From an uncultured Planctomycetales bacterium (GTDB lineage Bacteria > Omnitrophota > Gorgyraeia > Zapsychrales > JANLHA01), in the NCBI GenBank assembly GCA_964374105.1, contig CAYJXI010000006.1, positions 2,177 through 66,176 on the forward strand: DNA of 64,000 nt, in the 5' to 3' direction. Shown here piece after piece: positions 14,307-29,999 of this stretch; the stretch's first letter is position 1; every line of letters begins with the position of its first letter. The notes below the pieces were generated by a model. The model was not told where the DNA came from. It did no database searches and saw only the letters and a program-made list of their open reading frames with translations. The position numbers and the translations under genes were made by a program.

Positions 14307-14517
14307 TATTTTTGTTTGACAAATGGGAGATCCTGCCTTACTTTATAAAGGCGAATTCACTGTAACGGATCAATTTTTCAATTTCATGAACATCTTTCGT
14401 ACGAGAAACTGTAAGTAAGACAATCCAAAGCTGGATTGTCTTTTTTTATTTTTAAAATTTTGAACCGAGTGTATTATTGGAGGAATTGTTTATGAAAAGA
14501 ATTTTCCTATATTTGAT
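14268..14517. repeat. 250-bp direct repeat, copy 2. It overlaps the ISL3 IRR and continues into the promoter and 5' end of the intact MORN-lipoprotein gene
   Basis: See copy 1. Confidence 0.85.
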
Positions 14518-15847
14518 AATTGCTTTGCTCCTCATAGGGTGCGAAAGGAGGCAGGCGGCTAACGTTGTCGAAAAAGATGGGACATTCAAAATCTATCACG
14601 ATGATGGGAAACTTGCAGAAACGGGACGATATAAGGAGGGAGTGGAAGACGGTGTTTTTAAAAGTTATTACGAGAACGGGAGAATGGCCTCACTTGAGAA
14701 TTACAAAGACGGTGAGCGGGAAGGAGTTTTTAAGACTTATTACGAAGATGGGAAGCTTCTTGTTGAAGGAACCTTTAAGGATGATAAAGAAAATGGAATC
14801 TTCAAAAGTTATTATCCCAATGGCAAAGTAAGGACGATGGAAAATTACATAGAAGGTGTTAAAGAAGGAGAATTTAAGAGTTTTTATGAAAATGGCGATT
14901 TGGCTGTTGAAGGCACTTTCCAGAATGGTCAGGAAAATGGTGTCATCAAAAGTTACTATGAGGGGAAGAAATTCATGGCGGAAGGGAATTTCGTTAACGG
15001 CATCGCCCAAGGAATGTTCAAAAGTTATTATGAAAACGGTAAGCTTATGGCCGAGGGAAATTTCAAGGACGGCGAAGAAGAGGGAGCTTTGAAAAGTTAT
15101 TACGATAACGGTCAGCTCGCGGCCGAAGGAAATTTTGTTAACGGACTTGTGGATGGTGAATTCAAACTTTATTACGACAACGGGCAACTCGCCTCCGTGG
15201 GCAACTATAAAAACGGCATCGAGAACGGGGAATTTAAGAGTTTTGACCCTCAGGGGAAAGAGCGGTCGGTTGAGCATTATAAAGAGGGTTTATGGGATGG
15301 CGATTTCGCCTTTTATCACGCCAATGGTCAGCTTGTCACAAAAGTTAATTACGAGGCGGACAAATTGAAAGGGGCCTTCCAAGCGCTCTTTGAAAACGGA
15401 CAGCTGGCAGTCGAAGGCAATTATCAAGACGGTTTGCCGGAAGGCGGCTTCAAAGTCTATTATCCCGATGGCAAGATCAAGGTCGAAGAAGCTTATAAAA
15501 GCGGTGACGGCCACGGTGTCTATAAACATTATTGGCCGGATGGCAAATTGCGCTCTGAAGGCAATTACAAAAACGGACAGATGGATGGTGAGTTCAAAAG
15601 TTATTACGAAACCGGTCAGCTCATGGCTCAAGGCACTTATAGAGAAGGCAAGGAAGTCGGCCTCTTCCAAAGCTTTTATCCTGATGGAAAACTTAAATCT
15701 GAAGATAAGTATACTGACGGCATTCTAGAGCAAGGCATTTTTAAAACTTATGGTTCCCAAGGTGAGTTAAAAAAAGAAATTAAGTACTGGTACGATCAAG
15801 ACGGCGAGTTGCAAACCACAACGGTTGCCCACGAGCAAGGCGCTTAA
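14492..15847 (+). CDS. MORN-repeat (YwqK-like) lipoprotein
   Basis: Lipobox LLLIGC. About 18 tandem 23-aa MORN-variant repeats of the form G(K/Q)LxxEGNYK(D/N)GxxxGxFKSYYENG. ATG at 14492 with a GGAGGAA RBS. Confidence 0.7.
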   Translation: MKRIFLYLIIALLLIGCERRQAANVVEKDGTFKIYHDDGKLAETGRYKEGVEDGVFKSYYENGRMASLENYKDGEREGVFKTYYEDGKLLVEGTFKDDKENGIFKSYYPNGKVRTMENYIEGVKEGEFKSFYENGDLAVEGTFQNGQENGVIKSYYEGKKFMAEGNFVNGIAQGMFKSYYENGKLMAEGNFKDGEEEGALKSYYDNGQLAAEGNFVNGLVDGEFKLYYDNGQLASVGNYKNGIENGEFKSFDPQGKERSVEHYKEGLWDGDFAFYHANGQLVTKVNYEADKLKGAFQALFENGQLAVEGNYQDGLPEGGFKVYYPDGKIKVEEAYKSGDGHGVYKHYWPDGKLRSEGNYKNGQMDGEFKSYYETGQLMAQGTYREGKEVGLFQSFYPDGKLKSEDKYTDGILEQGIFKTYGSQGELKKEIKYWYDQDGELQTTTVAHEQGA

Positions 15848-15855
15848 AATTTTTC

Positions 15856-29000: not shown

Positions 29001-29602
29001 TGGTAGCACCGGGAGAACAGATTTATTCCCTGTGTTCTAAAGACAATAAACATGTCTTACCTTCGATCCGCAAAACCGGCTACTATAAACAGGACGGGAC
29101 GTCATTCTCCACACCGATGGTTACGGCGACCGCATCTTTGCTGTGGGCCAAGAATCCGAATTTAACCAATCAACAGGTCGCAGATATCATTTTGGCCACG
29201 GCAACGGATATGGATGAAAAGGGCTGGGACGGCATGACCGGGTACGGACTTCTTAATGCCGCTTCCGCCTTAAGAGCGGATGTGGATGAGAAGCTCATTT
29301 TGATGTTCACGACTTTGCGTATCAATCGTGATATTAACGATCGGGTGATTTCCGTTGATGTTTTTGGGACGGTGCGTGGGAAATTTAAGGAGTTTACCAT
29401 TGAGGTTGGCAAAGGGAAAAATCCGGGCGGGTTTAAGACGGTTGCCGGTCCGTTTCAGGACGACCACAACTATCAACATATCGTCCGGTTAAATGTTCAC
29501 CAATATCTTCGCGGCAGTGCGGACTGGGTTTTCCGAATCAAGGCCATTGATAAAGATGGCAAAGAACATTTTGCTTCAACACCTTTTACCTTGCCAAAAT
29601 AA
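26003..29602 (+). CDS. Secreted subtilisin-like serine protease (S8) with N-terminal Cys-rich repeat modules and an acidic/Pro-rich linker
   Basis: Signal peptide MKFKFKTISILTATILGLLVLGKNVQA. About four 45-aa Cys-rich modules (PPPxCEEKG(F/Y)xxDPxC...PDGxIR...DLxCYxC) shared with the giant protein. S8 triad in canonical order: VAVIDSGLD (Asp), HGTFVAGIIAA (His), ASGNNNNN (Asn), GTSFSTPMVTATASLL (Ser). Confidence 0.8.
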   Translation: MKFKFKTISILTATILGLLVLGKNVQAGLYPDQAALDAAYREAASQGRADEFLKNASQHGSGEEYQRVYELWDRDRSDGNLDGKIPEPGQGGADQPKEPIKVYDMSGYDIETDADGNITGFKKKKKEGEEEGEEGEEGEDQGQQQGQGGKKPPPPPPPPDPGKEVPGDKDLDFSRWCWFCVEGPKCQKGVLGGCDLKPCTDEQICHEHKETLADGRQILCHECQDKTRTPPPPPVCEEKGFISDPACNGKCPPEMCHKVLIGPDGKIRTWTAVRGDLECYECLKKSSCQDRNMSDSPDCGGACTPDMCEAVYIDSKGAIVPPGRTVTRQDLKCYRCRNSQTQPPPECTRGVTDPKCFGMCEQKDCEVVQTVVFGDQHWYCYDCKPKPPPSACEEKGYFDDPGCSNFCEEGSICIPVRIAPDGAIRGTNQTQSKQDLSCYACMRITEIEITWIIIIIETPFERFVLEKGKQDGFKPTSVMVLAKMDQATGMIKNTMGELKPILDFMGGFNVGWGPMGLTTTGKISMTQLSNLLSSKLSSSGSFGAGCFEDALKEADSQAFNEGIPTSDDIRGTGNERKSDKKKGESEVFSEEQLKKAQEAGNPAISGPIIACGNEGRNKVLRIYDANGAFVDSITQAVLKSNPNIITEKLGLAQQLTDMFIQKSGIDFASYIEKFTGLPLKDMQSYAAKVAEIKAQLDQVVDKKASKKKKKKEEEKKIIIPNDPLFLEDAGKPKSAVRERMKQIAANPLGGGMRIKGVMMGESTDTEENRALDRLDVKDQWGIRKVGFTDESDPNSAWNVVDAVQKNVVVAVIDSGLDMAHPDSPQYIWTNPKETPGNGVDDDKNGFVDDIHGWNFLNENHDFTDIRGHGTFVAGIIAAKYNNGEGIAGINPGAVIMPIKVADEEGVTNSLSIYRGINYAVNHGAKVINVSLGSRSISKLEQQAIERANAMGALVVVASGNNNNNLMEFGPASSKYSLAVGQIDFSGVRSTVSNWGPNLSLVAPGEQIYSLCSKDNKHVLPSIRKTGYYKQDGTSFSTPMVTATASLLWAKNPNLTNQQVADIILATATDMDEKGWDGMTGYGLLNAASALRADVDEKLILMFTTLRINRDINDRVISVDVFGTVRGKFKEFTIEVGKGKNPGGFKTVAGPFQDDHNYQHIVRLNVHQYLRGSADWVFRIKAIDKDGKEHFASTPFTLPK

Positions 29603-29618
29603 CCCTATCCATTGGAAA

Positions 29619-29999
29619 ATGAAAAAACATCTTTTATTTATTACATTCTTTATCCTTTCGATTTTCCCTGTTTTTGCACAGACTGAGGTGGGGCCCATCG
29701 ATGTTAAGCAGCGTTGTAAGGACGAGGGTGCCTATCAATGTGTAGGTGCTTGTTTCGATGGCTGGTCTATGGCTTGTTACTATGATGCTGCCAATTATAC
29801 GATTGAAAAGAACCTTAATCTGGAGGTCCAAAAAGATAAATGCTACGCTTTTTATAACACCAGTGCCTGTACGCCTTGCAGGAATATTTATCTCATTGAA
29901 GGAAAAGAAGTCGATTGCGAGAAATTTTATCATTCGATCAATGAAATGAATAAGAAATGTTCTGGGTGTCTGAGACTTACTTTCTCAGCGGGAGGATAA
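29619..29999 (+). CDS. Small secreted Cys-rich protein (126 aa)
   Basis: Signal peptide MKKHLLFITFFILSIFPVFAQT and at least 10 Cys residues. The start is 17 nt after the subtilase stop. The six-frame ORF opens earlier at 29493, overlapping the subtilase. Confidence 0.5.
   Translation: MKKHLLFITFFILSIFPVFAQTEVGPIDVKQRCKDEGAYQCVGACFDGWSMACYYDAANYTIEKNLNLEVQKDKCYAFYNTSACTPCRNIYLIEGKEVDCEKFYHSINEMNKKCSGCLRLTFSAGG

Follow-up and report, generated by a model that had tools for sequence, protein, structure and literature searches.

Gene organization of the locus

The DNA analysed here, referred to as the window, is a stretch of 64,000 nucleotides (nt) from contig CAYJXI010000006.1 of an uncultured bacterium (GenBank assembly GCA_964374105.1, positions 2,177 to 66,176). 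Between positions 14492 and 29999 it carries four open reading frames (ORFs), every one on the + strand. The first encodes a MORN_2-repeat lipoprotein of 451 amino acids (aa) with the lipobox LLLIGC (14492-15847; Pfam MORN_2), and the second a giant exported modular protein of 3371 aa (15856-25971), defined by its ORF and by the homologues P0001-P0008 and P0015-P0031. These are followed by an S8A subtilase of 1199 aa with a signal peptide (26003-29602; Pfam Peptidase_S8) and by a small exported protein of 126 aa with 10 Cys and a signal peptide (29619-29999). The giant protein and the subtilase are the subject of this report: they have a rare cysteine-rich module in common, and their genes are paired in every related locus with readable downstream DNA.

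An earlier note on this DNA had described a tight, co-oriented four-gene cluster sharing a Cys-rich module. The layout is as described, and the module was found in the giant protein and the subtilase but not in the small protein. The gaps between the MORN, giant, subtilase and small genes are 8, 31 and 16 nt; the 9, 32 and 17 nt given before are the same gaps counted one base differently. A hairpin scan of 13000-32500 placed the two strongest terminator-like sites around the cluster, before its first gene and after its last. The top-scoring one (14417-14452, + strand; 11 bp stem and T-run) closes the upstream ISL3 transposase unit, the MORN start coming next at 14492, while the other (30047-30098, + strand; 17 bp stem) lies directly 3' of the small gene. 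As judged from their placement, these hairpins probably delimit, at the 5' and 3' ends, the unit in which the cluster is transcribed. Short gaps between the genes and a hairpin on either side are consistent with a single transcription unit but are no proof of one.

The cluster proteins carry export signals in their sequences: signal peptides are predicted on the subtilase and the small protein, the MORN protein has its lipobox, and the N-terminus of the giant protein is weakly hydrophobic and signal-like. All named relatives belong to Candidatus Omnitrophota, and the host organism is probably a member of this phylum.

A six-cysteine module common to the giant protein and the subtilase

Both proteins bear six-Cys units with the spacing C-x7-13-C-x3-5-C-x4-7-C-x10-24-C-x2-C. 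In the subtilase, a leading CxxC (aa 177-180) is followed by five modules, S1-S5 (aa 186-441), the whole array being encoded at 26531-27325 (+ strand). The giant-type region (aa 321-496; 16816-17343, + strand) consists of three complete modules, G1-G3, and a fourth, G4, without the final CxxC. PPP linkers separate the modules. The module coordinates of the earlier note were essentially correct in both proteins, 26690 being the exact start of subtilase module 2. Its consensus, PPPxCEEKGF..DPxC...DLxCYxC, describes subtilase modules 2, 3 and 5 and giant module 4 but not giant modules 1-3, which have mainly the Cys scaffold in common with it.

BLASTP of the Cys region of the giant protein against that of the subtilase gave E = 1e-4. 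A hidden Markov model (HMM) made from the subtilase modules only scored 28.6 bits on the giant segment, compared with 6.6 ± 3.1 bits (maximum 21.5) for composition-matched shuffles, and none of 2000 shuffles reached the observed score. This test was scored without the HMMER composition correction (--nonull2), the shuffles serving as the control. Profiles of G1 and S2, built from family-wide module alignments, were compared with the 664 six-frame ORFs of the window; the sole non-self match of the G1 family profile was the subtilase and that of the S2 family profile was the giant protein. Single modules aligned with hhalign gave E values of 0.011-0.032 for S2 against G1, G2 and G3, and of 0.014 for S1 against S2, which are adjacent in one protein, so the matches between proteins are as strong as that between neighbouring modules.

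The strongest single piece of evidence is a natural fusion found in P0032, an S8 protease of 1639 aa in which G1-G4, with G4 complete, are followed by 12 subtilase-type modules and then by the S8 domain. Since P0032 holds both types in one continuous array, giant-type and subtilase-type modules constitute one array family. The modules of the giant protein and of the subtilase therefore belong to a common family.

In the Cys region of the giant protein, 21 of 22 Cys columns are invariant across nine sequences of only 45-52% overall identity, and many non-Cys surface residues are conserved as well, such as those of CYECPSG, RPDMCWQK, EWDG and GWGYDW. The region always has exactly 3.5 modules, at the same position, in the giants. 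Module number per S8 protein is two in the orthologues, five in the window, 12 plus 4 (16) in P0032 and at least 18 in the S8 of L090.

A conserved His adjoins Cys4 and Cys5 (C-x-E-H ... C-H-x-C) in the S1-type modules (aa 186-223 in the window, and those of the orthologues), at a position that is aromatic in S2-type modules. Because these His adjoin Cys, a metal (Zn) site instead of three disulfides is possible in S1-type modules. The Cys modules may be stabilised by disulfides or by metal.

Strict pairing of the giant and subtilase genes

Readable downstream DNA was available for 15 loci, about 13 of which are non-redundant, and in all 15 a homologous giant gene is directly followed by a module-bearing S8 gene. 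These are the window, L083-L090 and L093-L098, with the giant and the S8 protein both serving as points of entry: L083, L084, L085 and L086 via giant homologues, L087, L088 and L089 via the S8 proteins P0010, P0012 and P0014. L093-L098 are six additional metagenome loci with a giant and S8 pair. The S8 gene often overlaps the giant gene or starts within a few nt of it, and in L083-L089 and L093-L098 it encodes a protein of 1040-1140 aa with two modules. A module-less Omnitrophota S8 paralogue in L003 has no giant neighbour. Together with the P0032 fusion, this strict pairing bears out the earlier proposal that the giant protein and the subtilase form a real functional pair with a novel common module.

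In the stretches 10001-24920 of L091 and 5513-20324 of L092, P0032 itself is followed by a TpsB transporter (ShlB, E 2.9e-29) and by a giant with a two-partner secretion (TPS) domain (E 2.2e-28), longer than 4012 aa and unrelated to the window giant. This context supports a general link between giant exoproteins and the Cys-module S8 family. L091 also carries a serpin gene, about 5.5 kb upstream of P0032.

The other two genes of the cluster are less widely kept. The MORN lipoprotein matches PF07661 with 239.5 bits (threshold 29.6) in 11 stretches. Its homologue in L090 (35% identity, E 2e-82; MORN_2 E 8.9e-61) lies 4 nt upstream of the gene for the giant P0030, and no MORN gene was found upstream of the giant in L083-L089. 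Because L090 keeps all three genes, MORN, giant and S8 are a conserved trio in the window/L090 sub-clade. The inclusion of the MORN gene in the set was thus right for the closest relative and wrong for the other loci; as a general cassette member the lipoprotein was rejected for the main clade and kept for this sub-clade. P0030 is also the only protein with the full architecture of the window giant, comprising DPC repeats, beta-rich region, coiled coil, amphipathic region and HExxH cargo.

The small protein had been described as Cys-rich and secreted. It is exported and has 10 Cys, but it showed no significant similarity to any module type; with the best of five module profiles, 57 of 1000 shuffles reached the observed score, and it was rejected as a module relative. 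No counterpart was found in L083-L098 or in the JGI metagenome scan, and as an orphan it drops out of the set. Its gene is probably co-transcribed with the cluster but is no conserved part of the cassette.

Rarity of the module

A profile of the giant's Cys region matched 23 clusters among 1.84 billion representatives, a figure that concerns the giant-type region only. Most of these clusters are large proteins with the region at a similar N-terminal-proximal position, the exceptions being P0032 and a few short or truncated entries. Neither the giant nor the subtilase Cys region matched a Pfam or NCBIfam family at E values up to 1. Tandem modules were absent from 80 unrelated S8 loci (1.36 Mb), generic loci serving as a negative control; in the contig scan that yielded mostly such loci, L003 alone was informative. 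A word-indexed search with the subtilase Cys region returned nothing, not even the orthologues, because low complexity and the HMMER composition correction defeat such queries. A generic widespread domain, which the earlier note had named as the outcome that would speak against it, is not what the cluster count, the family searches and the S8 loci show. The word 'cysteine' occurs 0 times in West-Roberts et al. 2023 (bioRxiv 10.1101/2023.11.21.568195), and 'cysteine-rich' and 'subtilase' occur 0 times in a 2026 Omnitrophota preprint. The Cys-rich module is rare and undescribed.

Domain architecture of the subtilase

PF00082 matches the subtilase with 190.3 bits (cut-off 21.8) over aa 805-1082, covering profile positions 2-288 of 288. 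The catalytic domain (28415-29248, + strand) has the triad residues D813 (VIDSG), H868 (HGTFVAG) and S1034 (GTSFSTP), in Asp-His-Ser order within conserved motifs. By profile and triad the protein is a member of the S8A subfamily, and proteolytic activity is predicted. The nearest solved structures to the domain are Plasmodium SUB1, deseasin and subtilisin BPN' (E 2e-31 to 1e-27).

Between the Cys-rich array and the catalytic domain lie a hydrophobic beta segment (ITEIEITWIIIIIETPFERFVL) and a family-specific middle domain (aa 445-800; 27335-28402, + strand). Both are conserved in the orthologues P0010-P0014 and in the S8 proteins of L083-L086 and L090, and neither has a Pfam or NCBIfam match. 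The C-terminal beta-rich domain of 115 aa (aa 1085-1199; 29255-29599, + strand) is conserved in the orthologues, including the module-less L003 paralogue, and gave no Pfam match above threshold and no autotransporter match.

The S8 orthologue of L090 (13125-19979 in that locus) has 2284 aa and 173 Cys, with modules of the S1 and S2 types. It also holds a block of different Cys-rich repeats (CDDGDACTxxDxC...), which suggests from sequence that a second repeat type was recruited.

Scaffold, linkers and junction motif of the giant protein

From the N-terminus, the giant protein consists of a signal-like segment, a helical scaffold, the Cys-rich region, a Pro/Gly linker, six DPC repeats and a beta-rich region, followed by a coiled coil, an Ala/Gly/Val-rich amphipathic region, linkers, two HExxH cargo modules and a C-terminal helical region. 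Family members range from 1,150 to 3,400 aa. The homologues P0001-P0008 (1900-2200 aa) cover 4-17% of the giant query at 27-46% identity. The conserved helical scaffold (about aa 60-310; 16033-16785, + strand) was placed by reading the homologue sequences, and on this placement the common part of the homologues appears to be the helical domain plus the Cys region that follows it.

The Gly/Pro/Gln/Thr-rich low-complexity linker (aa 523-728; 17422-18039, + strand) has analogues in all homologues. Next come six repeats, each about 72 aa long and framed by (D)PC...DPC (aa 795-1385; 18238-20010, + strand), which only P0030 has as well. Their Cys pairs are 797/874, 897/969, 1007/1079, 1138/1209, 1226/1299 and 1312/1383; the repeats are helical, are separated by Gln/Pro/Thr-rich spacers and have no Pfam match. 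Self-BLAST of the giant protein for internal repeats gave no off-diagonal matches, and the repeats were defined by inspection and regular expressions.

A junction motif stands between scaffold and cargo. Of 28 members, 26 have one or two copies of an R[AG]PP motif, which precede the first cargo domain by 26-86 aa regardless of cargo type. In the window giant, the first junction motif, GAPREGPAIQPPPR (aa 2070-2083; 22063-22104, + strand), is a candidate processing site, and [RK]EGPxIQPP, which is related to R[AG]PP, occurs at aa 2074, 2724 and 2773, with two degenerate copies in addition. The linker between the two cargo modules (aa 2715-2828; 23998-24339, + strand) is made up of repeated EPT[IV]G.[PA]REGP.IQPP and TPIIHTDQGAITQPRD motifs. 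In P0018, the same linker motif (EPTVGAKKEGPTIQPP) lies 43 aa ahead of the HExxH module.

Elsewhere in the family, cargo domains are joined by short peptide motifs in tandem, which vary from protein to protein, such as TQKFDDVLQPP, LSPGQIQD..PTQ[KR] and WD[KR]AATVIDQPIP in P0003 (about aa 1900-1960), P0005, P0028 and P0030. The window giant has tandem T[VMLF]ID[RK] motifs at aa 2160-2240. Such tandem motifs could be protease sites, binding motifs or spacers.

Interchangeable cargo and the DUF8367 gene

The members of the giant family keep the N-terminal scaffold and vary at the C-terminus. Among the representative proteins, eight have cyclase-like plus kinase-like cargo, ten cyclase-like only, three kinase-like only, one cyclase-like plus HExxH (P0018) and one HExxH only (P0030, one copy). 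Beyond the representatives, the window giant has two HExxH copies, and the giants of L087-L089 have kinase-like cargo only. The cargo of the family is thus modular. PF03497 (anthrax EF/ExoY-type) matched four of six isolated cyclase-like domains, with a best E value of 1.6e-5. PDB sequence searches with profiles of the HExxH, cyclase-like and kinase-like domains gave no significant match.

The first HExxH module of the window giant (aa 2395-2685; 23038-23910, + strand) has HEYVH at aa 2500-2504 and GYNE 17 aa past the second His. The second (aa 2856-3128; 24421-25239, + strand), with HEYVH at aa 2961-2965, is 51% identical to the first. HE[YS]VH is invariant in all four copies of the module, and so is the Glu of G/NYNE, a putative third zinc ligand, which follows the second His at a distance of 17 residues in both copies of the window and at a longer one in P0030 and P0018; an AE(A/G) motif comes next. 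The AlphaFold2 (AF2) model of the module has a mean predicted local distance difference test (pLDDT) score of 56, with a core of 73-83 formed by helices, a three-stranded sheet and the HExxH helix. The Pfam matches were not significant (SprT-like E 0.17, Tox-MPTase2 E 0.3). The three PDB folds nearest to the model are all small zincin proteases. In common with Wss1/SprT-like proteins and selecase zincins are a small beta-sheet before the HExxH helix and, after it, a helix with a conserved Glu (GYNE). Compared with these small zincins, the cargo module is larger, at about 280 aa, and has a long helical C-terminal extension without a match. The HExxH modules may be zincin-like, but the model supports this assignment weakly.

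A DUF8367 gene stands directly after the S8 gene in six loci, all with cyclase-like cargo: L083 (19660-20451), L084 (19983-20735), L085 (19982-20794), L093 (17145-17858), L094 (9244-9957) and L095 (17455-18189). It does not follow the S8 gene in the kinase-only loci or in the HExxH locus L090. The protein has no evident signal peptide and has a CPFC motif and conserved C and H residues. The window, whose giant has no cyclase, nevertheless retains a truncated DUF8367 gene, the N-terminal half only (31614-32150, + strand), of which 31659-32063 corresponds to aa 3-137 in the homologue from L084. DUF8367 could be a cargo-specific immunity or cofactor gene, and the window copy could be a relic of a cargo swap.

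Genes around the cluster

Directly upstream of the cluster and its strong terminator-like hairpin is an ISL3-family transposase (13052-14125; DDE_Tnp_ISL3, E 1.3e-42), which may bear on how the locus was rearranged. Before it, at 10609-12843, a 744-aa protein has at its C-terminus a Peptidase_S74 'chaperone of endosialidase' domain (E 1.1e-15), of the sort typically seen in the tail-fibre or spike proteins of phages. A cell-surface neighbourhood follows the cluster at 30088-31557, 32200-33240, 33357-35483 and 35560-37800 (- strand for the last). Encoded there are a HEAT-repeat protein whose N-terminus has a hydrophobic stretch, a PEP-CTERM protein and two proteins with dockerin domains, of which one also carries a di-haem peroxidase domain. 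In L083 and L086, too, the cassette is flanked by PEP-CTERM genes. Further away, at 45256-45346, a c-di-GMP-I riboswitch (RF01051; 37.6 bits, gathering score 35) lies upstream of the ORF at 45543-46604.

Proposed mechanism and alternatives

The locus is one variant of a conserved cassette, probably confined to Omnitrophota, in which the gene for a Sec-exported giant protein is directly followed by that for a dedicated S8A subtilase. The giant protein may be a multi-cargo exoprotein that is matured by its own subtilase, recruited via the common modules; we put the chances of this being so at about even. The modules would bring protease and giant together, either by module-module contact or through a common ligand on the surface of the producer or of the prey. 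The subtilase would next cut the giant at linker or junction motifs, resulting in maturation or cargo release. We infer the cutting of the giant, the cut positions and the targeting by modules from strict adjacency, shared modules, junction motifs and the export of both proteins, which make a dedicated maturase the simplest account. Release of the HExxH modules, as the earlier note had suggested, is plausible from their arrangement as interchangeable cargo flanked by a repeated linker motif.

Several observations weigh against this proposal. With the default HMMER composition correction, zero similarity is left between the giant and subtilase modules, and for this reason homology has to be argued from the Cys scaffold, the permutation test and the fusion protein. 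For the Cys region of the giant, the AF2 model made with nine sequences has a pLDDT of 48.8, too poor for fold or disulfide topology, and Foldseek on this low-confidence model was uninformative. The cargo assignments are weak: PF03497 remains below its gathering threshold on full-length proteins, and the top three PDB matches of the HExxH module in Foldseek, Wss1 (twice) and selecase, have probabilities of 0.84-0.91 and E values of about 0.08-0.1 from a low-confidence model. The window has no TPS, type I secretion or autotransporter element that would take either protein across the outer membrane. S8A subtilisins are not known to prefer Pro-rich sites of this kind, and the role of the junction motif could be in structure or translocation instead of in proteolysis.

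The serious rival among the explanations considered is that giant and subtilase are deployed together and act independently. Their modules would bind the same external target, and the subtilase would degrade proteins of the target surface while the giant stays unprocessed. Strict pairing and shared modules fit this equally well, the module number of the S8 proteins (2, 5, 16, at least 18) varies as adhesin-like repeat arrays often do, and Omnitrophota are considered predatory or host-dependent. Nevertheless, it leaves unexplained the conserved junction motif ahead of the cargo and the position of the S8 gene immediately after the giant gene in every locus, often overlapping or a few nt away, and the TPS locus in which P0032 stands resembles that of a known pair of protease and substrate. 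We consider joint deployment of this kind possible but somewhat unlikely.

The modules might instead be a rigid spacer or stalk spread by domain shuffling, with no targeting role, in which case the giant could still be processed through other recognition. A spacer would allow the copy number to range from 2 to more than 18 while the remaining S8 architecture is kept, and it would fit the PPP linkers between modules and the tentative AF2 model of module 1, a small helix plus beta-hairpin unit. The Cys region of the giant is, however, very strongly conserved, including many non-Cys surface residues, which is unusual for a spacer, and it is fixed at 3.5 modules in the same position. A mere spacer is accordingly held to be improbable.

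Less probable still, by a wide measure, is that the giant is a signalling receptor, with its N-terminal part outside and its cargo domains in the producer's cytoplasm, whose ectodomain is shed or activated by the subtilase. Cyclase and kinase-like domains are typical signalling outputs, and an Ala/Gly/Val-rich region lies between stalk and cargo. Nevertheless, apart from the weak N-terminal hydrophobicity, no segment of the giant reached transmembrane grade (19-aa Kyte-Doolittle mean of at least 1.6), and the receptor topology was rejected on this ground. The cyclase-like domain matches the toxin-type PF03497, the cargo swaps among unrelated enzyme classes, including a protease-like module, and the cytoplasmic DUF8367 gene tracks the cyclase cargo in an immunity-like manner.

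That the module resemblance is a chance effect of Cys-rich composition, or that the module is a generic domain, is hardly credible and effectively already refuted, since the lack of a significant match in composition-corrected HMMER and single-module E values of only about 0.01-0.03 are set against 0 of 2000 shuffles, reciprocal exclusive cross-matches in the window, the P0032 fusion, 23 clusters in 1.84e9, no Pfam or NCBIfam family and 80 unrelated S8 loci without tandem modules.

Taken further, maturation by a dedicated subtilase could be part of an unrecognised class of AB-like multi-cargo toxin found in Omnitrophota only. The secreted scaffold would provide a Cys-rich head for binding, a long stalk and an amphipathic region that acts on membranes, and an exchangeable EF-like cyclase, kinase-like domain or mini-zincin would stand behind the Pro/Arg junction. 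The producer's subtilase, docking through homotypic six-Cys modules, would be its own equivalent of furin. If DUF8367 is cytoplasmic immunity for the cyclase, the targets would therefore be other prokaryotes. That scaffold, swappable cargo, activation by the producer's own subtilase and cargo-matched immunity should all hold jointly is doubtful.

Omnitrophota are widespread, uncultivated and ultra-small, and are thought to be predators or parasites of microbes whose mode of attack is largely obscure. The cassette offers a candidate protease-substrate pair recognisable from sequence alone, with candidate cleavage motifs, a new module and swappable cargo. If processing takes place as proposed, the known bacterial exoproteins would gain a new delivery scaffold and a new targeting domain, and subtilases would be seen to serve, in a second and independent case, as dedicated maturases of giant secreted proteins. 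If the two proteins are only deployed together, the module would still mark a small coherent set of surface proteins and help in finding the interaction partners of Omnitrophota.

Comparison with known systems

A close functional parallel is the FhaB/FhaC/SphB1 system of Bordetella, in which FhaB, a giant adhesin exported by two-partner secretion, is matured by a protease at the surface. SphB1 is the subtilisin-family maturation protease of FhaB (PMC2193847), and FhaB is described as a giant exoprotein whose C-terminal part is removed or handled separately and whose maturation needs a dedicated subtilisin-family protease (PMC2193847; PMC4542190). The window likewise has a giant exoprotein and a dedicated subtilisin-family protease, for which a maturation role is proposed here. 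P0032 with its TpsB and TPS-domain giant presents the same cast as FhaC/FhaB/SphB1. The window giant, in contrast to FhaB, has no TPS domain (no PF05860), and neither ShlB nor POTRA_2, as expected for an FhaC-like transporter, was found in the window ORFs scanned with Pfam, which were the four cluster genes and ten flanking ORFs spanning 4033-12843, 13052-14125 and 30088-37800. Unlike SphB1, the window subtilase lacks an autotransporter domain, Peptidase_S8 being its only Pfam match. For want of a TPS domain, a TpsB gene and an autotransporter domain, the window is excluded from systems of the FhaB/SphB1 type. A further difference is that the protease gene here always adjoins the gene of its presumed substrate. 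To our knowledge, no Cys-rich module common to both proteins has been reported for FhaB and SphB1.

With MARTX and polymorphic toxins, the giant family has in common a conserved N-terminal scaffold and interchangeable C-terminal enzymatic cargo, including an ExoY/EF-like cyclase-type domain; ExoY-like modules occur as MARTX cargo. As in polymorphic toxins, a small cytoplasmic gene, DUF8367, tracks one cargo type in the manner of an immunity gene. However, no RTX, cysteine protease domain, RHS, LXG, PAAR or TPS Pfam match was found in the giants checked (the window giant, P0001, P0003, P0007 and the L088 giant). The gene immediately 3' of the giant is the S8 protease in every locus, not an immunity gene, and cargo release would need a separately encoded subtilase, not an internal autoprotease.

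Giant proteins are already known from Omnitrophota. The 'Archaeovorins' and Dockerin-type proteins are exported and multi-domain with a proposed role in predation, and S8 and C39 peptidase domains may cut giant Omnitrophota proteins into smaller products (West-Roberts et al. 2023, bioRxiv 10.1101/2023.11.21.568195). The family described here resembles them in phylum, in export and in being very large and multi-domain. Those giants exceed 10,000-30,000 aa and have internal peptidase domains and glycosyl-hydrolase, transferase or dockerin content, whereas the present family is of 1,150-3,400 aa, is without those domains, has a separate S8 protease and is defined by its Cys-rich region. A giant exoprotein with a dedicated subtilase is of a known kind; what is new here is the module and the scaffold.

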